DNA from: Spirochaetia bacterium
GTDB lineage: Bacteria; Spirochaetota; Spirochaetia; SZUA-6; Bin103
Direction of reading: 5' to 3'
Length of the DNA: 64,000 nt
Assembly: GCA_965198005.1 (NCBI GenBank)
Contig: CBDAOI010000002.1
Location: forward strand, 160,001 to 224,000
Shown here: piece by piece, positions 11,259 through 40,752 of the stretch
Layout of the letters: every line of letters begins with the position of its first letter
Numbering within the stretch: position 1 is the first letter of the stretch
Notes under the pieces: generated by a model
Told to the model about the DNA's origin: nothing
What the model saw: the letters and a program-made list of their open reading frames with translations, nothing else
Databases searched by the model: none
Position numbers and translations under genes: made by a program

Positions 11259-12028
11259 TCCTTGGTAGTATTGGCGACAACATGAGCGGGCCGAACGAAA
11301 CTGTTTCCATGACGGTGGTGAACTGGAATGTCGAGTGGGCCACCCCCGGATCCTGGAGTCGTCGCGACGAGATCCTGAGCCGTATCGACCGGGAAGCTCT
11401 GGACATTGTGTGTCTCACGGAGTCGGACATCAGGCTGTTGGCCGGCATGCCGGGCCACACGATCCACTCTCAGCCGGACGGCGTAAAGGGGATCGACAAC
11501 CTACGGAAGGTGCTCCTTTGGTCGAGAGAGCCATGGGAGCAGGTCGATGACTTCGGAGTAGACTCGATGCCTCCAGGCAGGTTCGTATCCGGCGTCACCC
11601 GTACGCCCTTGGGCGACATGATGGTCCTGGGTGTTTGCATACCGTACCAGCATTCGCGGACGAAGTGGACGGGCGACCGTGTCACGCGCAAACCCTGGGA
11701 GGATCACCGACAGTATCTGGCAGACCTCCCGAAGGTGTTCGAACGGGCCTCATCGAAGCGCTTGATCGTCCTGGGGGACTTCAACCAGCAGGTTGGGCAG
11801 AGCGGTTATGCACCGCCGGAGATTCGGGATGCCCTGCGGGACGCCATCCCGCCAGGTATCACGATTGCCACCGCCGCGCTCGGTTTCGGCGGCCGAAGGG
11901 TGATCGACCACGTTGCGCTGAGCGAGGATCTGTCAGCGCGGTCTCTGCGGCTGATCAGCCGATTCCACCAGGAGAGGAAACTGTCAGACCACCCAGGGGT
12001 GGTTGCCGATCTGTCATCGCTGGTGTAG
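11255..12028 (+). CDS. Endonuclease/exonuclease/phosphatase (EEP) family protein
   Basis: VNWNVE, DIVCLTE, VLGDFN, IDHV, SDH catalytic motifs; true start may be 11282 or 11309. Confidence 0.88.
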   Translation: MILGSIGDNMSGPNETVSMTVVNWNVEWATPGSWSRRDEILSRIDREALDIVCLTESDIRLLAGMPGHTIHSQPDGVKGIDNLRKVLLWSREPWEQVDDFGVDSMPPGRFVSGVTRTPLGDMMVLGVCIPYQHSRTKWTGDRVTRKPWEDHRQYLADLPKVFERASSKRLIVLGDFNQQVGQSGYAPPEIRDALRDAIPPGITIATAALGFGGRRVIDHVALSEDLSARSLRLISRFHQERKLSDHPGVVADLSSLV

Positions 12029-12045
12029 CCGACCGATTCCAGTCG

Positions 12046-12936
12046 GTCTGGTCGGTCTTCTCCAAGGCGGCCGCCGCTGTGGACGAGCACCGGCTCCTGA
12101 CCGAACTGCGCCTGTTCGGTCGCGTCAAGCGCCGGCTCGCGCAGATGGAGCGCCCGCCGTTCGAGTTCTGCGTGGTGGACGAGGCGCAGGACATCGGCGT
12201 GGCCGAGTTGCGCTTTCTGGCCGCCCTCGGCGCCGGGCACCCGGACGCCCTGTTCTTCGTCGGCGACCTCGGTCAAAGGATCTTCCAGACGCCGTTCTCC
12301 TGGCGAGCCTTGGGGGTCGACATCCGCGGCCGCTCGCACACCCTGCGGGTCAACTACCGCACCTCCCATCAGATCCGGCGGCAGGCGGACCGGCTGCTGC
12401 CGCCGGAGACCTCGGACGTGGACGGCAACACCGACCGGCGAACCGGCACCGTCTCCGTATTCAATGGCGCGGAACCGGTGATTCAGGTCCGCCCCTCGCA
12501 TGACACGGAGACTGCAGCAATCGCGGAGTGGCTGAAGTCCCGCGGGCAGGAAGAGTATGCACCGCACGAGATGGGCGTGTTCGTCCGATCGAAGGCCGAA
12601 CTGGACAGAGCCATCGCGGCGGTTGAAGGGTCAGGCTATTCGGCCGTCGATCTGGCGCAGCACGCGGGCGGCGTCTCGGGCAACGTCGCCGTCGGTACGA
12701 TGCACCTCGCGAAGGGCCTCGAGTTTCGCGCCGTGGTCGTCGCCGCCTGCGATGCCGAGGCGCTGCCGTCGCAGGCAAGAATCGAGCGAGTCGGCGATCA
12801 AGCCGAACTCGACGAGGTCTACACCACCGAGCGCCACCTGCTCTACGTCGCGTGCACCCATGCCCGCGATCATCTCCTGGTGACTGGCGTCGAACCGGCC
12901 TCCGAGTTCCTCGACGACCTGTTCAGCGAGCACTGA
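12046..12936 (+). pseudogene. C-terminal portion of UvrD/REP-type SF1 helicase
   Basis: VVDEAQD, GDLGQRIF, LRVNYRT, TMHLAKGLEF, ERHLLYVACT; no Walker A and no start. Confidence 0.88.
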
Positions 12937-15944: not shown

Positions 15945-16345
15945 CACCATGGTGCGACCGGCTCCATGTCCCACGCTTCCACGACGGACGCGCGCGCCGC
16001 GCCGCCGACCGCGAACAGCCGGACTGCGGTGCTGTCCGCGCGTGTCGGGTAGACCCGCTGGGTAAGGCACTGGCGGCGGTTGGCGAACACCTCATCACTG
16101 TCCGATCGATGAACACCCGCAGCTCCAGGGCTTCCCCCTTCGCTAGGTGGAAGGGTGCCGCCCGCACCGTGCCGGCGGTAGGAAACGCCTCCGCGCGGGT
16201 CGGATCGTAGTCCCAGTACTGCATGTCATCCGCCAGGCCGGAATGCCGGAAATCGATCTGCAGCTTTCGCTCCCCGGCAGGCAGGAGATCACGGTCTGCT
16301 CGCTGCCGTCCGGCGAGCACAGCACTTTCACCCCACCGTGGACGC
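15945..16345 (-). pseudogene. Glycoside hydrolase family 32 C-terminal fragment, frameshifted
   Basis: VLCSPDGSEQTVI and [38 protein letters not shown] across frames. Confidence 0.65.
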
Positions 16346-16424
16346 GTCGCCGGGATCGATCCGCAGGAACAATTCGAGGCCGCTCCCGGAGATGCCGCAT
16401 CGAGATCCCGCGCTATGTCGCCTC

Positions 16425-17710
16425 CGGGAGCGCCGTGTTCTCCGGTGTGCCGGACAGCCAGTTGTTGAACTACGGCGTACCCGCTGAGTGGCTGAATGAC
16501 GTCAGGCAGGCGGCTGACGAGGACGCGCTCCTGGCCCTGACGGATCATCTTCCCGCCGAGGCCACCGAGGCGCTGCTGGCACTGGCTACCGGGAGCACAC
16601 CGGAGCGGCCGGTCCGCGGAGGCACGCACGGGGATCCGTTTGCCCATCCCGATGCGCAACGCCGCTTCCGCGTCATGTCCAACCAGGAGGAGCTGCGCCG
16701 GGCGTTCGAATATCCGTGGGAGAAGTGGACGGTCTTTCTGCACCCGGCTCAACGGCAGGTGGTGGAACGGAGCTACCGCGGCCCGGCGCGTGTGTCAGGA
16801 TCTGCCGGAACCGGCAAGACCATCGTGGCGCTGCATCGCGCCGTGCATCTTGCCCGCACCCACTCGGACGCACGCGTGCTGCTGACCATGTTCTCCACGG
16901 CACTTGCGGACGCGTTGCGCGCACGAGTGGTGCGACTCATCGCCAATGAACCGAAGATCGCCGAACGGCTGGAGGTGCACGCGATGGCCGACATCGGGCG
17001 GCGGCTCTACCAGGCGCACTTCGGCCGCCCCGATTTGGCGACCCCCGACCGGGGGCGCGAGCTGTTGCGCCAAGCCGCCGCCGAGGTCGAAGACCTGCGG
17101 TTCAGCTTGCGCTTCCTGTGGACCGAGTGGAGCCGCGTGGTCGACGCCTGGCAGCTTGCGAGCTGGGAACATTATCGGGACGTGCCGCGGCTCGGTCGGA
17201 GGACTCGCCTGCCCGAACGGCAGCGGGAGCTCCTCTGGTCGGTCTTCTCCAGGGTGGCCGCCGCTCTGGACGAGCACGGGCTCCTAAGAAACAACAGTTT
17301 CTTACATGACCACGCCGGGCCCCGCCCGGTGGGAAGCTCCTGAGAAACTACCACTGTTTCTGCCATGACTGCGCCGGGCCGCAGGGCCGGTGGGAAGCTC
17401 CTGACCGAACCGCGCCTGTTCGGTCGCCTGCAGCGCCAGATCGCGAAGATGGCGCGCCCGCCGTTCGAGTTCTGCGTGGTGGACGAGGCCCAGGACATCG
17501 GCGTGGCCGAGTTGCGCTTTCTGGCCGCCCTCGGCGCCGGTCGCCCGGACGCCCTGTTCTTCGCCAGCGACCTCGGTCCACGGATCTTCCAGACGCCGTT
17601 CTCCTGGCGCGCCTTGGGGGGCGGCATCCGTGGGCGCTCGCACACCTTGCGGGTCAACTACCGCACCTCCCATCAGATCCGGCGGCAGGCGGACCGGCTG
17701 CTGCCGCCCG
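16425..17710 (+). pseudogene. UvrD/REP-type helicase central portion, disrupted by a 117-bp insertion and truncated at both ends
   Basis: WTVFLHPAQR, GPARVSGSAGTGKT (Walker A), VVDEAQD; insertion at 17286-17402 carries an in-frame TGA. Confidence 0.88.
17283..17402 (-). mobile_element. Two stacked ends-only miniature IS110 derivatives (56 bp and 61 bp)
   Basis: Unit 1 equals the two ends of the IS110 at 37802-39523 joined at ACAG; unit 2 is a variant; empty alleles GCTCCTGACCGAA at about 12093 and 22334. Confidence 0.88.
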
Positions 17711-17952
17711 GCGGACGGGGCGGACCGGGGCCGACCGGCTGCCGGTTGAAAATACTCCCGCTTCGTGGTTAGATTGGCTCACCGTGCGGTCGGCGCATAT
17801 GGTGCAACCGATAGCCCCGCGATGCTTGGAACTTGGATCGCACTCCCGGCGCATAGCTTTCGCGTCGCTCTGACGCAACAGTTCAAACGCCTCGGAAGTG
17901 CGTTGGAGCGCATAATCGGTAGCCAGAAGTATCGCGGAGCGGTGTGGCACTG

Positions 17953-18663
17953 ATGAGTGATGAACGGTTATCGACGATGCAGAACGTGAAGCGTATGGTT
18001 TGTCTCGCGAACTCACGGAAACTGCACGGGCGGTGCATTGCAGGCAGAGAGTGGCACGACACTCGGGCCGGCCGTTGGATCCGGCCGGTCAGTGCGCGCG
18101 ATGCCCAGGATGTGTCGGAGTACGAACGACAGTACAAAGACGGCAGTGACCCACGGGTACTCGACATTATTGAGATCCCCGTGCTGGAGCCAAAGCCGAA
18201 GGACTATCAGACCGAGAACTGGTTGCTCGATCCCAAATACTACTGGAAGAAGGTGGGCCGGCTACCGTGGCCCGAGCTCAAGCTGCTCACGGACGCGGTC
18301 GCGCCACTCTGGATCAACGGACATAGTACGTACAACGGTCAAAATGACGAGGTCCCGATCGGGGCCGCCGGATCGGTGGCCGATTCGCTGAGACTGGTCC
18401 ACGTTGACCGAATCCAGTTGGTCGTGTGCAACCCGGGCGAAGCCTTCGGCAATAGCAAACGACGCGTGCAGGGTTGCTTCGAGCACGCCGGCCACAAGTA
18501 CGCCCTGTGGGTTACCGACCCCCAATTTGAGCGAACCTATCTTGCAAAGCAGGATGGCAGCTATGAGATCGGTGAATGCTATCTCACCATTAGCCTCGGG
18601 GAACCGTACCGAGGCGCGTGCTACAAACTGATCGCCGCGATCATCGTCGGCGACCGGCGGTAG
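17953..18663 (+). CDS. Dual OB-domain-containing protein
   Basis: VCLANSRK..GRCIAG, WIRPVS, YQTENW, VTDP, LTISLGEPY...YKLIAAII. Confidence 0.75.
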   Translation: MSDERLSTMQNVKRMVCLANSRKLHGRCIAGREWHDTRAGRWIRPVSARDAQDVSEYERQYKDGSDPRVLDIIEIPVLEPKPKDYQTENWLLDPKYYWKKVGRLPWPELKLLTDAVAPLWINGHSTYNGQNDEVPIGAAGSVADSLRLVHVDRIQLVVCNPGEAFGNSKRRVQGCFEHAGHKYALWVTDPQFERTYLAKQDGSYEIGECYLTISLGEPYRGACYKLIAAIIVGDRR

Positions 18664-18667
18664 GATC

Positions 18668-19285
18668 ATGCCGGCGCACGACGGAACCATACTGACCATC
18701 GGCCACTCCACGCACGCATTGGAGGCGTTCGTCACATTGTTGCAGCGCCACTGCGTGACCGTGGTAGCGGATGTCCGCGCGGTGCCGTACAGCCGCTTCA
18801 ATCCCCAGTTCAACCGCGAGCCGCTGGCGGACAGCCTGGCCGAGCATGGCATGAAGTACGTGTTCCTCGGACGGGAGTTGGGCGGGCGCTCGGACGACCC
18901 CTCCTGCTACGACAATGGGCGCATCTGCTACAACCGTCTTGGCGGCACCCAGTCATTCCAAGACGGACTAGACCGCGCGGTGCGCGGCGCGGCTAATCAC
19001 CGCATCGCGCTCATGTGCGCCGAGAAAGAGCCGCTGGAGTGCCACCGCGCCCTGCTGGTGGCGCCGGCGCTTGAGGCGCGTGGCCTGCCGGTCGGCCATA
19101 TCCTGGCGGACGGTGCGCTGGAAACCCACGCCGACGCCATGGACCGCCTGCTCGCCATGTACGACGAACCGAAGCAGGGGGATTTGTTCGGGCATCTTGA
19201 CACACGGGTCGAGGGAGCCATCGCTAAACAAGCGGCACGCTTCGGACACCGAAACGAGAATCTGGCCGCCGGGCAAGAGGCATGA
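18668..19285 (+). CDS. DUF488 family protein
   Basis: TIGHSTH, DVRAVPYSRFNPQFN, ELGGR, LMCAEKEPLECHR. Confidence 0.9.
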   Translation: MPAHDGTILTIGHSTHALEAFVTLLQRHCVTVVADVRAVPYSRFNPQFNREPLADSLAEHGMKYVFLGRELGGRSDDPSCYDNGRICYNRLGGTQSFQDGLDRAVRGAANHRIALMCAEKEPLECHRALLVAPALEARGLPVGHILADGALETHADAMDRLLAMYDEPKQGDLFGHLDTRVEGAIAKQAARFGHRNENLAAGQEA

Positions 19286-20353: not shown

Positions 20354-21667
20354 GTGATAGACGAAGGCCCTCGCCGCCCGGCGACCACCTCGGAGTTCTT
20401 CACTTCCGGCGTCGCGCAACGGGACCCGATGATCGCCGAGGCGCTGGCCAGCGAAGGGCGGCGCCAGCAGCAGCAGATCGAACTCATCGCTTCCGAGAAC
20501 ATTGTCAGCCGCGCCGTCCTCGAGGCGCTCGGTCATGAAGTGGTGAACAAGACGCTCGAAGGATACCCAGGCGCCCGCTACCACGCCGGCGGGCGCTTCG
20601 TGGACGTGATCGAGCAGGCCGCCGTGGACCGCGCGTGCGAGCTGTTCGGGTGCGCCTACGCGAACGTACAGCCGCACTCCGGCAGCCAAGCCAACCTCGC
20701 CGTGTTCTTCGCGTTGGTGCGGCCCGGCGACCGCGTGCTGAGCCTGGACTTGGCCGCGGGCGGTCACTTGAGCCACGGGCTCCGCGCGAACCTGTCAGGC
20801 CGCTGGTTCGAGGTCCACCACTACGGGGTCTCCCGCGAGACTGGAATGATCGACTACGGCGAGGCGGAGGCGAGGATTTTGGAGGTGCGGCCGCGACTGC
20901 TGATCGCTGGCGGGTCCTCCTACCCGCGAACCCTGGACTTCGAGAGGCTGGCCGACGCTGCCCGGACGGTCGGTGCGTACTTCGTGGTGGATATGGCGCA
21001 TATCGCCGGCCTCGTGGCTGGCGGCGCCCACCCGTCGCCGATACCGCACGCCGATATTGTCACCTGCACCACCACAAAGACCCTGCGCGGGCCGCGCGGC
21101 GGAATGATCCTCGCGCGGGATGAGAGCTGGAGAAGGAAATTGCAATCCGCCGTCTTTCCGGGCGTCCAGGGCAGCATCCACACTCAGGTCATAGCCGCGA
21201 AGGCGGTCTGCCTGGGCGAGGCGCTGCAACCGGAGTTCAGAGACTACGCCCACCAAGTCAAGAAGAACGCCGCGCGCTTGGCCGCGGTCCTGGCCGATGG
21301 CGGACTGGCGGTCGTTACCGGCGGCACGGACACCCACATCGTCCTGCTGGACCTATCCGACATCGGAATGACCGGTCAGGCTGCCGAGCGCGTTCTCGAG
21401 CGGTACGGCATCACGACCAACAAGAATCCGATCCCGTTCGACGTCAGCAATCCGGCCGAGTGGAGCGGGCTGCGGATAGGAGTCGCGGCCGCCACCACGC
21501 GCGGGTTCCGGGAGGCGGAAATGGAACAGCTCGGACAGGTGATTTCCTCCCTGCTGACGGCACCCGGTGCCGGCGACGAGGCGCAACGGATCGTGGCGAG
21601 GCTCTGCCGATCGTTCCCGCTCGGCATGCGGACGCATGACGGTGTTGCTGTTGTTCGGCCTGGGTGA
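20354..21667 (+). CDS. glyA: Serine hydroxymethyltransferase, full length
   Basis: ELIASEN, NKTLEGYPG, NVQPHSGSQAN, GGHLSHG, DMAHIAGLVA, TTTKTLRGPRGG, GGTDTH, NKNPIPFD. Confidence 0.95.
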   Translation: MIDEGPRRPATTSEFFTSGVAQRDPMIAEALASEGRRQQQQIELIASENIVSRAVLEALGHEVVNKTLEGYPGARYHAGGRFVDVIEQAAVDRACELFGCAYANVQPHSGSQANLAVFFALVRPGDRVLSLDLAAGGHLSHGLRANLSGRWFEVHHYGVSRETGMIDYGEAEARILEVRPRLLIAGGSSYPRTLDFERLADAARTVGAYFVVDMAHIAGLVAGGAHPSPIPHADIVTCTTTKTLRGPRGGMILARDESWRRKLQSAVFPGVQGSIHTQVIAAKAVCLGEALQPEFRDYAHQVKKNAARLAAVLADGGLAVVTGGTDTHIVLLDLSDIGMTGQAAERVLERYGITTNKNPIPFDVSNPAEWSGLRIGVAAATTRGFREAEMEQLGQVISSLLTAPGAGDEAQRIVARLCRSFPLGMRTHDGVAVVRPG

Positions 21668-22269
21668 TCCTTGGTAGTATTGGCGACAACATGAGCGGGC
21701 CGAACGAAACTGTTTCCATGACGGTGGTGAACTGGAATGTCGAGTGGGCCACCCCCGGATCCTGGAGTCGTCGCGACGAGATCCTGAGCCGTATCGACCG
21801 GGAAGCTCCGGACATTGTGTGTCTCACGGAGTCGGACATCAGGCTGTTGGCCGGCATGCCGGGCCACACGATCCACTCTCAGCCGGACGGCGTAAAGGGG
21901 ATCGACAACCTACGGATGGTGATCCTTTGGTCGAGAGAGCCATGGGAGCAGGTCGATGACTTCGGATCAGACTCGATGCCTCCAGGCAGCTTCGTGTCCG
22001 GCGTCACCCGCACGCCTTTGGGCGATGTTACGATCCTTGGGGTCTGCATACCCTACCAAGAGATTCGGGATGCCCTGCGGGACGCCATCCCCCCAGACAT
22101 CACGATTGCCACCGCCGCGCTCGGTCTCGGCGGCCGAAGGGTGATCGACCACGTTGCGCTGAGCGAGGATCTGTCAGCGCGGTCTCTGCGGCTGATCAGC
22201 CGATTCCACCAGGAGAGGAAACTGTCAGACCACCCAGGGGTGGTTGCCGATCTGTCATCGCTGGTGTAG
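21664..22269 (+). pseudogene. EEP family duplicate with an in-frame 56-aa deletion removing the GDFN motif
   Basis: Alignment to 11255..12028: CIPYQ joins directly to EIRDALRD. Confidence 0.85.
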
Positions 22270-22286
22270 CCGACCGGTTCCAGTCG

Positions 22287-22540
22287 ATCTGGTCGGTCTT
22301 CTCCAAGGTGGCCGCCGCTCTGGACGAGCACCTGCTCCTGACCGAACCGCGCCTGTTCGGTCGCCTGGAGCGCCGGCTCGCGCAGATGGAGCGCCCGCCG
22401 TTCGAGTTCTGCGTGGTGGACGAGGCGCAGGACATCGGCGTGGCCGAGTTGCGCTTTCTGGCCGCCCTCGGGGCCGGCCGCCCGGACGCCCTGTTCTTCC
22501 CAGTGACATCGGTCAAAGGAACTTCCGGACGCCGTTCGAC
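22287..22540 (+). pseudogene. Short UvrD helicase fragment (third copy)
   Basis: FEFCVVDEAQDIGVAELRFLAALG then frameshift and truncation. Confidence 0.8.
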
Positions 22541-23049
22541 GCACGGAAGAAGAGGGCCCACACGGGGGATCTCGCGGGATAGTCCGGAAATCGTGTTGCG
22601 CGCGCCGGTCGGAAAGTGAGCCAAAACGCCGGTCGGTTTTTGACCCACCCAAGCAGTGCAGATGGAGTGTAACGGAGGCGGCGGTAAATGGGGAGGGGGT
22701 CCGGGGGAGGGGTGAGATTGCTTGTGGATATTGTGGAAAACTCGGCATTGAGCTGCGGGTGCTGCGGCGACGTGGACGGCCGTGATCGGCGCCGGTCTGC
22801 GCGGTTAGGCCGTCGCAGGGCCGTGGTCAGTGAAGCTGCCGGGATTCAGCGGGTGCTGCGAGTCAGAATGGAGAACCTGAGGGCCGATTCGGTGTTCAGC
22901 AGGGGGGTATCCAGAGACCACCTGTGCGCGTGGCGGGGCCTTGCAGGGTCGCTGTGAGCGCGTGTTCCGCGCCGGACAGGCAGGATGCCGGCCTGCGGTG
23001 GCGCTACCGCCGTCGGGTGGGTGCGACCGAGCCGATCCAGGAGCCCGTG

Positions 23050-37292: not shown

Positions 37293-37509
37293 CCGCACGC
37301 CGCAGTGTGCGCGATTCGCCGGAGCCGGGCCAAGTGCCCCAAGTGCCCGTGCTAGCGTAAGTTGCGCACTTTCAAGGACGATGTAGCGAGATTTGCCGGT
37401 CGCACAGATGAACGGAGGCCCCTGAGGGCGAGAGATTCTACCGGGGGACGAGTTTTTCCCCATGTAGTGATAAAGAGCATGGTAAGCAGTTTCTTGGTGC
37501 AGAAATATC

Positions 37510-37538
37510 TTGACCGCTCTCGCCCCCGTTGCTATCTT
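37510..37538 (+). promoter_or_regulatory. Putative sigma70 promoter of the IS1634 transposase
   Basis: TTGACC-17 nt-TATCTT with TG extension, 8 nt before GTG 37547. Confidence 0.6.
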
Positions 37539-37829
37539 GTGCGTGCGTGTTCATCGGTCAGCTCAAAGTCTCCCGCAACGGCCGCTCCTACACCTACCAC
37601 CGCCTCCTGCAGTCGGTACGCACCGATAACGGCCCCCGGCAGCGACTCATCCTGAGCCTCGGCACCCTCACGCTCCCCAAGTCCGAGTGGCCGCGCTTGG
37701 CCGAACGCATCCACGACAATGTCAACGTCACAAGCCCCGGGACCAAGCTCCTAAATCGGGTTTCTTACATGACCACGCCGGGCCCCGCCCGGTGGGAAGC
37801 TCCTAAGAAACAACAGTCAGGCACGACAG

Positions 37830-39245
37830 TCAGGCAGCCTCCGGGACAAGCACATAACCGAGGGCCCGAGCTTGGTTGCGGACGCGGCGTTCGAGGCGTC
37901 GCAGGTCTTGGCGTTCCTGGGCGGCGAGGATGCTGTCGTCGTACGCAACGCGATGGGTAACGAGATGGTAGATGATGCGCGCCAGTTTGTGGGCAGTCGC
38001 CGTGATCGCCTCGGGAGTACCCAGGCGCGCGCGCATCCGGCGGAAGTACTGGCCGAGGGACGAGGGGCTGCGGTACAAGCACTGGGTAGCCCAGCGTAGC
38101 GCCTGAGCAGCGCGATTGGTGCCGGGTCCGGTGTGTGCGCTGATGATCCTGCCGCCGGTGATCTGGTTGTTGGGACACAGGTTCAGCCAGGATGCGAATT
38201 GCCCCGCAGTCGGGAAGCGTGACAGGTCGGGGCCAAACTCGGTGAACAGGATCAGTGCAGTGCTTTCGCCGATGCCGGGAATGAGCGTCAGGTCGGTGCC
38301 GAACAGGCGCGCAAGGTGCGCCTTCAGGTTGAACGGCTTGGGCGGTGACTCGGTTGGCGTCGGCGGCGCATCGGCGGTCTCCTCCGCAGGGTCCTCCGCA
38401 GGGTCCTCCGCAGGGTCCTCCGCAGGGTCCTCCGCCGGCGCGCTCGGCGGCTCGTTCGTGGATTCGAACGAGCGGATGCGAGCTTCGATTTCCTGATCAC
38501 ACTCCGCGATGAGCTGTTGGTAGTGGGCATAGGTGGCACGCGCGTGACGCAGTGTAAACAGATGCTCGGAGCGCCAGTCACCTTCCAGCGCTGCAATCAG
38601 GGTGGCGCGGCTGGCTTTGATCCGCCGGTCGGCCAGATCGGCCAAGCGTGCTGGATCCCGCTCTCCGTTCAGGATGGCCTCGGTGATAGCCATCCCCGTG
38701 ACCCCGGTCAGGTCAGAGATGGCGTGGTGCAGATGGACGTTCATCTGGTCGTACGCCTTCTGCATGTGCAACACGCTCCGTGAGGCGGTCTTGATCAAGT
38801 TGTCGCGATGGCGCAGCAGGGCGCGCATCGCACAGACTTCGTCAGCGGGCCGGAACGAACCGCGCAGCAGGCCCACGGAGTGCAGGTAGCGCAGCCACTC
38901 GCAGTCGGCCACGTCGGACTTGCGTCCGGGGACCGAGTGCACGTGACGCGCGTTGACCAGCACCACGTCGAAGCCATGCGCCTCCAGGATCTGGTGCACC
39001 GGGATCCAGTAGACCCCGGTCGACTCCATCGCCACAGTGGTTACCTGGCATTCCTTGAGCCAGTTGGCCAAAGCGTGCAGGTCGCCAGTAAAGGTGGGAA
39101 AGTTCCGGATCGGGTCCGGGTCGCGATCAGGGCGCACCGCCGCGTACACCGCCGTGGCGCCCACGTCCAAGCCCGCGGCGTCGGGATGGACGGTATTCGG
39201 TTGCGCTGAACGACTGCCTTTGCCTTTACGGCTGCGTCGTGCCAT
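37830..39245 (-). CDS. IS110-family DEDD recombinase/transposase
   Basis: GLDVG, AMESTGVYW, VNA, GRKSDVAD, IPGIG, FASWLNLCP, AITATAHKLARIIY; GGAGGA RBS. Confidence 0.95.
   Translation of the reverse strand: MARRSRKGKGSRSAQPNTVHPDAAGLDVGATAVYAAVRPDRDPDPIRNFPTFTGDLHALANWLKECQVTTVAMESTGVYWIPVHQILEAHGFDVVLVNARHVHSVPGRKSDVADCEWLRYLHSVGLLRGSFRPADEVCAMRALLRHRDNLIKTASRSVLHMQKAYDQMNVHLHHAISDLTGVTGMAITEAILNGERDPARLADLADRRIKASRATLIAALEGDWRSEHLFTLRHARATYAHYQQLIAECDQEIEARIRSFESTNEPPSAPAEDPAEDPAEDPAEDPAEETADAPPTPTESPPKPFNLKAHLARLFGTDLTLIPGIGESTALILFTEFGPDLSRFPTAGQFASWLNLCPNNQITGGRIISAHTGPGTNRAAQALRWATQCLYRSPSSLGQYFRRMRARLGTPEAITATAHKLARIIYHLVTHRVAYDDSILAAQERQDLRRLERRVRNQARALGYVLVPEAA
38380..38435 (+). repeat. 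12-bp in-frame tandem repeat (TCCTCCGCAGGG)x4.7 encoding PAED repeats
   Basis: Direct reading; protein reads PAEDPAEDPAEDPAEDPAEE. Confidence 0.95.
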
Positions 39246-39269
39246 GAGAATCCTCCGCTATGGACTGAG

Positions 39270-39445
39270 TGGGGCGGCCAAGGCGTGAGTAGCAGGTATT
39301 CTCCTAAACGGGATGATCGCCACCCAGCAGCGCCAAGCGAAGACCTCACCAATGACTACGCCACCCGCCCTGGGACCAAGCTCCTGAACGGGTTCGCCCC
39401 GCAGGGCGTAACACCAATGACGCGACGGCCTACTTTCGCGCCCCT
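39270..39445 (-). ncRNA. Putative IS110 bridge RNA A (two guide loops)
   Basis: Two modules on the minus strand: GTCAT-TGGTG-stem-CCCGT-TCAGGAG and GTCAT-TGGTG-stem-CCCGT-TTAGGAG, directly upstream of the recombinase; boundaries approximate. Confidence 0.8.
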
Positions 39446-39523
39446 ACCCAGAGATTTGCACCCATAATAGCGCTCGCCACAGTTTCTTACATGACCACGC
39501 CGGGCCCCGCCCGGTGGGAAGCT

Positions 39524-39761
39524 TCTGAGAAACAAACAAGTCAGGAATGAGCGTTCAAGGAACTGAATGGCTGTCTGGTGGCGCCCTGCTGTCCTCCTGC
39601 GTGATGGGTGGATGGCGCGGCGGGGCGTGAACGACAGGTATTCTTCTGAACGGGATGATCGCGACCGGACGATGCCAGTCCGCGATCTCACCAATGTCAA
39701 CGTCACAAGCCCCGGGACCAAGCTCCTAGTCGGGTTCGCGCCCAGCAGGGCGTCACACCAA
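39524..39761 (-). mobile_element. Recombinase-less IS110 sister element B with its own bridge-RNA-like region, truncated
   Basis: End TCTGAGAAACAAACAAGTCAGG parallels A end CCTAAGAAACAACAGTCAGG; 39620-39761 is homologous to 39280-39417; RBS-like AGGAGG on the minus strand but no recombinase ORF. Confidence 0.78.
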
Positions 39762-40752
39762 CGGAGTTGGCAGCGCGCGAGCGGGAGCTGTTCACGCTGC
39801 AAGAAACCATCATCCTGTACGACTTGAGTTCGACTTACTTCGAAGGCCTCGCGGCCAACAACGAGAAGGCGGCGCGGGGGTACTCGCGGGATCATCGACC
39901 GGACCGCAAGCAAGTAGTGGTCGGTCTGGTGCTGGATGGCGAGGGCTTTCCCAAGGCGCACGAGGTGTTCAAGGGCAACACCAAAGACGAGACCACCATG
40001 GCGCGGATGCTCGACAGCCTGGACCGCCGGATCAGTGTTCGGAGCGGGGCGGGGCGACGGTGGTAATGGACCGTGGCTTGGCGACGGACGAGAACCTGGC
40101 AGTGCTGCGCAAGCGCGGTCAGCACTATATCGTGACCACTGAACAGAGCCAGCGGCGTGAGCTGTTTCCCGAGATTGACAGTTCCGGATACGTGCCGGTG
40201 AAAGTGAACAGGAAGGGGAAAATCGTCGTCTCAGGCCAACTGCGGCGGCATCAGGGTGAGCTGTACGTGTTGTGTTACAGTGAGGCGCGGGCGGCCAAGG
40301 ATCGTGCGATACGGGAACGGTTCGCACACCTATTCGAACGGGAGTATTGTGGCTGGTATTGAGCGGTCCGTCAAATGTGGTAAAATGCGAACGCCCCCTG
40401 TGCGGGGGCGTCCACACTCTACCTGCCGCTGAGCAGGAGCCGGAGGCAGTGATTGTCTCCGGCTGCTTCGTCAACGGCGAAGGAGTCTTCTGTGGGGCAA
40501 CGCAAGCCTACCCTTCTCGACTATTTCCGCCCGAATCCTGCCGCGTGCATCTGTGGAGCGGAGTTTGATCGGCAATGCCCGGTCAACGTCACTCTCATGG
40601 ATCGCTACAGAGGTCCGGTGCAGGGCCTATTCTCGGTGGCTCAGAAGCATGGGATCACGACAGAGGAAGTGCGGGAGCACCTAACCCGCCTTCCACCTGC
40701 CCGCGTCAACTACGAGGCTTAACGCCTACGGGGCGCCTGCCCCTCCCAACCT

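Follow-up and report, generated by a model that had tools for sequence, protein, structure and literature searches.

Non-autonomous modules of insertion sequences (ISs) of the IS110 family are already known, and the bridge-RNA elements of that family, IS621 among them, were reportedly described by Durrant and by Hiraizumi and their co-workers in 2024. The core of IS621 is CT, that is AG on the other strand. [quoted passage not shown] According to that account ISPpu9 needs a 43-bp A box with a small internal palindrome and a 16-bp B box to form circles, with an AG crossover, and its MITE-like module forms circles alone or together with the transposase gene (PMC12288879). Here we consider 64,000 nucleotides of a Spirochaetia bacterium genome (contig CBDAOI010000002.1, positions 160,001 to 224,000; hereafter the window) in which a UvrD-like helicase gene carries an insert of 117 bp. 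This insert probably represents two stacked, cargo-free, non-autonomous derivatives of the IS110 family that depend for their spread on a full element's recombinase and bridge RNA, whose presumed source, element A, lies in the same window. We assign this reading a probability of about 0.8.

The two derivatives, termed units, share several properties with MITEPpu9 as it is portrayed in PMC12288879. Both are non-autonomous and bounded by copies of IS ends, with an AG crossover that is probable for the units, and no target duplication. Both occur alone or abutting a transposase gene, and MITEPpu9 depends on a transposase acting in trans (PMC12288879). The units carry both IS end boxes without a transposase gene, are multi-copy, and have tips of 44 and 12-13 bp, almost equal to the 43-bp and 16-bp boxes of ISPpu9 (PMC12288879). 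The differences concern content, target and type of evidence. MITEPpu9 carries a small RNA (sRNA) gene with its own promoter whereas the units have a mere 4-7 nt between the arms of a 7-bp repeat and so no such cargo; ISPpu9 targets repetitive extragenic palindromic (REP) sequences, the units a short word also found in genes and in the leaders of other IS110 elements; circles of ISPpu9 were shown by PCR while the units are known from sequence alone (PMC12288879).

Element A resembles IS621 and the other bridge-RNA elements in combining DEDD and Transposase_20 domains with an upstream non-coding leader whose two loops would hold the words matching target and donor, as far as these are set out in PMC13626964. 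In contrast to IS621 the guides of A are assigned by sequence match and covariation, right-hand and handshake guides were not found in its leader, and its donor and target left words are one base apart, which makes its own ends targets. A further difference is a 7-bp inverted repeat. In A and its relatives one arm is placed 38 nt inside the left end (LE); at the right end (RE) the second arm is separated from the core by 3 nt. Such repeats are ascribed to the IS1111 group and not to the IS110 group in the accounts of PMC11187229 and PMC12288879, yet in A and its relatives the leader is upstream of the gene, as in the IS110 group.

Classical MITEs and the hairpin-forming REP doublets (REPINs) are likewise short, multi-copy and non-coding, form hairpins and rely on an enzyme encoded elsewhere. 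The units, unlike these, lack terminal inverted repeats and a target-site duplication. Their ends are not mutual inverted repeats, the 7-bp repeats being internal and side by side, and nothing is duplicated beyond the common core region. An RNA word would guide them, in place of a DDE transposase or a REP-associated tyrosine transposase (RAYT). Site-specific insertion at a short common core with no target duplication is what is observed, and this is the pattern of the IS110 family. No description of cargo-free, ends-only, multi-copy and self-stacking IS110 derivatives of 56-61 bp was found in the literature searched, supplements excluded. An IS110-related ISfinder entry is listed among MITE matches in PMC11602168, and the supplement to that paper might bear on ends-only forms.

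The insert, its copies and element A

The insert occupies window positions 17286-17402 and is composed of a 56-bp and a 61-bp unit. On the plus strand the order is CTCCT, unit 1, unit 2 and then GACCGAA.

17281-17285, minus strand: CTCCT, common to the flank and the unit ends; its sense-strand form AGGAG comprises the probable core AG and 3 nt in which target and donor agree
17286-17341, minus strand: unit 1, ends-only, 56 bp, derived from element A; the RE tip contributes a 7-bp repeat and the LE tip the partner repeat, CATG and a GC hairpin, with a loop of 4 nt between the tips
17342-17402, minus strand: unit 2, 61 bp, of the same build but from a diverged subfamily
17403-17409, plus strand: right flank GACCGAA, which with CTCCT forms the original target
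16147-17343, plus strand: interrupted UvrD-like helicase frame (PF00580, E-value 6.4e-09)
12094-12105, plus strand: empty site in a paralogous copy
22335-22346, plus strand: empty site in a paralogous copy

The length of 117 bp, 39 times three, maintains the reading frame, yet where unit 1 joins unit 2 a TGA arises that ends the UvrD-like frame at 17343 (codon 398). The original prediction held that this gene has 117 extra base pairs compared to the uvrD copies at 12094 and 22335, and that these form two units with a common ending. Both points stand. In the alignment neither copy has the 117 bp, CTCCT running directly into GACCGAA, and the 14-mer that closes each unit occurs four times in the window with at most one mismatch, against a mean of 0.03 in shuffled sequences (0 of 100 shuffles reach four). 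The term empty alleles was misplaced, as the copies are paralogs within a segmentally duplicated region. As single strands both units fold into two hairpins, with z scores of -3.4 for unit 1 and -1.4 for unit 2, the latter value being non-significant taken alone.

Precise insertion is supported by three comparisons of filled and empty sites, base-exact in each case and with a single common CTCCT. In addition to the two paralogs in the window, two more empty UvrD paralogs are located a short way beyond its edge (C2:147773 and C2:153943), and for one of these flank identity is 97%. A second pair is formed by C2:364983, which is filled, and C2:425600, which is empty, in duplicates that are 98-99.5% identical. 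The third comparison involves a second IS110-family IS, for which eight copies were aligned; a unit is positioned approximately 140 bp upstream of the recombinase gene in two and the site is empty in six. The 56-bp units at C3:151584 and C4:2390422 sit in the leader of this other IS110-family element (at least eight copies), at a site reading GTG AGGAG TAG. It follows that related elements hit one another's non-coding leaders.

The presumed parent and its immediate neighbours are all encoded on the minus strand.

37805-39526, minus strand: element A, 1722 bp, IS110 family, presumed source of recombinase and bridge RNA
37830-39245, minus strand: recombinase gene of element A, 471 amino acids (PF01548 and PF02371; NF033542)
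39483-39526, minus strand: LE tip of A, the part retained in unit 1
37805-37817, minus strand: RE tip of A, the part retained in unit 1
39381-39387, minus strand: leader word UCAGGAG, read as the left target guide
39302-39308, minus strand: leader word UUAGGAG, read as the left donor guide
37761-37804, minus strand: second LE tip adjoining the RE end of A (a stack), then an internally deleted leader fragment
39527-39761, minus strand: a related element reduced by loss of the recombinase gene to leader and RE tip, adjoining the LE end of A

The product of A matches PF01548, the N-terminal DEDD domain, at 1.2e-18 and PF02371, the C-terminal Transposase_20 domain, at 2e-09, the domain pair of the IS110 family. 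Against NF033542, 'IS110 family RNA-guided transposase', it scores 250 bits with a cut-off of 140. A non-coding leader of about 280 nt lies upstream of the gene. Searches of the 4.9-Mb genome with tblastn and blastn identify A as the sole full-length copy. Other traces, each single-copy, are a 275-bp right-end fragment (C2:733668), a relative of 67-77% identity (C4:1384073-1384791) and a few leader remnants. The remnant at 39527-39761 aligns with the leader of A over 119 nt at 76%.

Unit 1 can be derived from A in a single step. On the plus strand its first 13 nt are the left end of A and its last 48 nt the right end with one mismatch, the two segments overlapping by 5 nt (ACAGT). Unit 1 therefore equals A minus 1666 inner base pairs, the product of a deletion between two 5-nt direct repeats. 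It had been proposed that the unit is exactly the two ends of A fused at ACAG. Both ends are those of A; the match is inexact by the one position, where A itself ends CTTCT, and the overlap is five nucleotides rather than four.

What the units retain is best judged from an alignment of 17 LE tips, taken from full elements and units, in which the build is conserved throughout. The order is core, a C/T-rich word ending CCCACC, hairpin, CATG, two variable bases and AGAAAC. The outer stem of the hairpin, CCGG...CCGG, is invariant and the inner pairs are GC/GC, CC/GG or CCC/GGG. The RE tip reads GTTTCT, the complement of AGAAAC, then one base, AGG and the core. A unit thus keeps about 44 bp of the left end (donor right half, GC hairpin, CATG and 7-bp repeat) and 12-13 bp of the right end (partner repeat and donor left half), with the 7-bp arms 4-7 nt apart and folding on each other. 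Nothing beyond the LE-side arm remains, and promoter, bridge RNA or leader, and recombinase gene are all lost. Unit 2 shares this build, in agreement with the earlier description of a diverged relative that keeps CATGAC with an altered pairing stem. Its full-length parent was not found in this genome; the LE tip of a unit in the related genome G001 differs from that of unit 2 at five of 44 positions.

A pattern search locates ten copies of the 56-bp unit in this genome, all with one common junction and all at one and the same short target, and the possibility that it occurs only once, named beforehand as fatal to the idea of a mobile unit, is thereby removed. Five copies are identical, unit 1 included, four have in common a single A-to-G change and one carries three changes. 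The set is completed by unit 2, a degenerate unit at C4:1426449 and a 57-bp type of which a duplicated region holds two copies. Among the remnants of A-like elements, multiple copies are restricted to the form with both tips; those of other shapes occur once each, with differing break points. Pairs of 5-nt direct repeats number 2499 in element A, seven of them leaving a product of at most 100 bp as well, so that nine independent and identical deletions are very unlikely. The four units with the A-to-G change are mutually identical and a full-length element with that change is absent from the genome, observations that incline us towards an independent spread of units. The ten copies with one junction and the empty sites in three comparisons support the earlier proposal of minimal non-autonomous elements.

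Target words, guide words and stacking

Which features of a site attract a unit? Eight sites were compared on the sense strand. The left flank reads S (C or G), T and then C (6/8) or G (2/8), followed by AGGAG in all eight. Counted by position, T is at -2 in 8/8, C at -1 in 6/8 and AGGAG present in 8/8, with an unconserved right side. The leader word UCAGGAG of A corresponds to left flank plus core at six of the eight sites, while the second word, UUAGGAG, corresponds to the RE tip of A plus core.

These assignments can be examined further in five genomes with multi-copy homologs of the recombinase (74-83% identity), two within the genus (G003 and G005) and three from elsewhere in the family (G014, G020 and G022). 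The first leader word matches the flank left of LE at 5/5 readable boundaries (UCAAGAG in G005, GUCAAG in G003, G020 and G022). The second matches RE tip plus core, again at 5/5, the base before AGGAG being U in A, C in G005 and A in G003, G014 and G022. The variable base shifts in step in the leader word and in the matching flank or tip. This is how the two left-hand guides of a bridge RNA, for target and for donor, should behave, consistent with the original prediction that CTCCTGA equals the target guide of the bridge RNA of A. In G003 the LE and RE boundaries have AG alone in common, pointing to a 2-nt core AG (CT on the window plus strand). With such a core the five-letter 'repeat' of type A would be 3 nt common to donor and target words plus the core.

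The similarity of donor and target words offers an explanation for the stacking. The RE tip plus core of unit 2 is UCAGGAG, identical to the target word of A, as had been anticipated from the recreation of CTCCTGA at the edge of that unit. In type A the corresponding segment differs from the target word only at the position that tolerates G in two of eight sites. Since RE tip plus core nearly equals the target word, element ends are themselves targets and stacks can form. Apart from unit 1 on unit 2, this genome has a unit on a truncated A (C2:733612), a unit on a degenerate unit (C4:1426393), a unit on a leader remnant (C2:26556) and A itself between the related remnant and the extra LE tip. 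Stacked units also occur in G001, G006 and G008. The suggestion that the units could build small arrays holds to the extent that stacks, of two units or of a unit and a whole or broken element, recur here and in three related genomes; no array of more than two units was seen.

The DNA that encodes the left target guide is the target sequence, and guide-coding DNA can therefore be hit as well. In G008 (C341, about 2337-2410, L062) the DNA that received one unit resembles the stretch of a related leader where the target guide is encoded. In G005 (C4:1265919-1268965, L012) two full-length related copies lie head to tail, the RE tip of one adjoining the LE tip of the next, the arrangement of a circle-type joint.

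Spread of the units and competing explanations

The pattern of the collapsed build was sought in 92 genomes of the order. Twelve matches fall in this genome, two in G001, one in G003, one in G006 and three in G008. The seven matches outside this genome are therefore confined to four of the ten other genomes of the genus, none being found elsewhere, and a control with the reversed pattern gave 0. Loops of the unit-2 type are alike across species while the units are at differing loci, which points to an old lineage of units rather than to repeated births. A recombinase homolog was not found in G006 and G008 at E-values of 1e-30 or below, in fragmented assemblies of 180 and 340 contigs, respectively. 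In G005 there are 15 full copies, 15/15 LE tips are beside a recombinase gene and collapsed units number 0.

The probable sequence of events is as follows. Unit 1 would have been born from an A-like element by one deletion between two ACAGT words, after which A would have supplied recombinase and bridge RNA in trans for its copying to further sites. Insertion would occur at the 2-nt core, AG on the sense strand and CT on the window plus strand, where the left flank matches UCAGGAG, with no target duplication. Element tips that mimic the target would draw insertions to element ends and so give rise to stacks. The anatomy, the number of copies, the empty sites, the covariation of guide and flank and the occurrence in related genomes are observed; movement in trans and its route, the dependence on A and the AG core are inferred. 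A double-stranded circle of 56 bp can hardly be bent given the stiffness of DNA. We would accordingly favour copy-out of the top strand (a single strand), direct transfer, or movement in a larger composite with a neighbouring element. A preprint on an IS110 element reports that only the top strand is copied out, that a single-stranded circle can integrate and that ends can be transferred directly without a circle (10.1101/2025.10.25.684509). It is possible, if doubtful, that units of 56-61 bp are mobilised in trans entirely on their own, in which case the spread over ten sites would be natural evidence for the disputed single-strand (top-strand copy-out) or circle-free pathway of IS110 elements.

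Could the units, in a variant of this reading, be mere passengers, never moving alone but travelling in composite circles with an abutting full element? They would then remain after the full copy excises or is removed by recombination between the 44-bp LE tips. The idea sidesteps the problem of a 56-bp circle and fits the stacks of a unit with full or truncated A at C2:733612 and window 37761, the head-to-tail copies in G005 and the ISPpu9 circles described as containing transposase gene plus MITE-like module (PMC12288879). However, the four identical units with the A-to-G change have no full-length counterpart, units are present in G006 and G008 where the homolog search of those fragmented assemblies at 1e-30 found no recombinase, and under copy-out, as the preprint claims, the full copy would stay in place (10.1101/2025.10.25.684509). 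We regard this explanation as unlikely, though it deserves to be taken seriously. That each unit is instead a scar, a former full insertion collapsed independently in situ by the same deletion, is improbable. The deletion ends do fall at a direct repeat of 5 nt next to the inverted repeats of 7 bp, which perhaps favour it by drawing those ends together, and a favoured path could yield the same build in three or more unit types (loops of 4, 5 and 7 nt). Set against this are the single junction in ten copies out of 2499 possible 5-mer pairs (seven leaving 100 bp or less), the other remnants with break points that differ and occur once each, the 15 full copies in G005 and about 22 in G020 with none collapsed, and the unit-2-type loops that are alike across species.

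A different origin is conceivable in which the tips are halves of a pre-existing 56-bp REP-like repeat of the host, preferred by the IS and entered by A at ACAGT. ISPpu9-type elements are described as inserting into REP so that copies are flanked by REP halves (PMC12288879), and the unit is rich in palindromes. The guide words nevertheless match outside the tips and at the outer edge of RE, not around ACAGT, and covary in five element types; the units insert at sites matching the guide word of A; and in G005 all 15 LE tips adjoin a recombinase gene with no unoccupied unit. Nor do the units conform to REPs or REPINs, although no search for a RAYT was made. We consider this origin very improbable. 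Least credible of all, to the point of being barely conceivable, is an assembly artefact in which the 117 bp are misplaced. The gene has four paralogs, the units are multi-copy repeats, and no listed contig of four public runs covers the whole stretch. Yet the genome is in four large contigs, the two units at 117 bp are shorter than a read, and the insert is exactly at the family target word with the usual single common CTCCT, which a misjoin would not reproduce.

The public runs were examined as Logan contigs only, in which the sequences of all organisms are pooled. A contig joint that skips exactly the 117 bp is present in 4/4 runs (six letters fit both sides), and paralogs may account for it. 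Over the units the summed contig depth is 10-40 times the flank value, for which other organisms or paralogs can account. Unit copies in these contigs run past the unit end into other letters and one matches the flank of C2:26556. We do not count the public contigs as evidence for an empty allele or for movement.

Several observations weigh against a derivation of mobile units from A, and temper our confidence in it. No movement has been observed. Relatives rich in full copies, G005 with 15 and G020 with about 22 (15-23 overall), are without units, which indicates that full elements do not spawn them readily. The type-A unit was not found within three mismatches in 40 relatives, nor in exact-word scans of two public contig collections that possibly exclude the genome of the window, so that a single genome is the only source from which type A is known. 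The LE boundary of A itself is AGAAG, not AGGAG. The right half of the target shows no conservation at the eight sites, and the 7-8 nt seen are insufficient alone for site choice; a by-eye search of the leader for right-hand guides, words complementary to the LE tip, gave none that convinced us. Finally, the two filled copies of the other IS have one private base in common and are otherwise mosaic, one being truncated; they may reflect one insertion that was later copied rather than two events, and a tree and the site patterns of all eight copies fit either course.

If units of this size are mobilised on their own, they would define in nature a minimal donor (about 44 + 12 bp) and rank with the smallest known mobile DNA. 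They would then also target themselves, and arrays could be seeded at their ends as well as in the DNA that encodes the guides of related elements. Their presence at many places suggests that the units mark roughly the least DNA that this RNA-guided recombinase system recognises. Bridge recombinases are in development for programmable genome editing, where the minimal donor and the need for a double-stranded circle are live questions. The units represent a natural deletion series already selected for spread, with tips very near in length to the boxes that mutagenesis delimited in ISPpu9, and their size strains the circle model physically. Their main value may lie here, as a natural minimal donor and as a test by size between competing models of transposition. 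The near-equal donor and target words illustrate a cost of RNA-guided targeting, namely stacks and mutual disruption among related elements.

Surroundings of the UvrD-like gene and of element A

The UvrD-like gene is represented by five copies or fragments in approximately 35 kb, at window positions 11635-12936, 16147-19285 and 21664-22700 and at 147.7 kb and 153.9 kb of C2, interleaved with fragments of serine hydroxymethyltransferase genes. A dual-OB (PF22557) gene and a DUF488 gene are downstream of the interrupted copy. The region looks like a segmental duplication of a helicase-DuOB-DUF488 cassette.

A scan of 37400-39900 with Rfam returned one chance-level match to an unrelated sRNA and no bridge-RNA family. 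Folded as a single sequence the leader of A is no better than shuffles (z +0.58), and a scan of 39200-39600 for consensus promoters and terminators found none. A TAnAnT word about 20 nt past the LE-side repeat in several relatives was noted by eye and is unsupported.

Within the recombinase gene of A, a 12-bp tandem repeat occurs four times at 38371-38438 and encodes a repeated acidic, proline-rich stretch in the interdomain linker. The homologs of relatives match across about 457 codons compared to 471 in A. A 54-nt direct repeat with a spacing of 1722 bp marks the tandem arrangement at element A. The nest formed by leader remnant, element A and extra LE tip splits an IS1634-family transposase gene (37540-37716 and 39762-40360), a fragment of which, 39797-40063, matches NF033559 at 1.5e-24. 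The nest is bracketed by an identical 37-nt direct repeat at 37717-37753 and 39692-39728.

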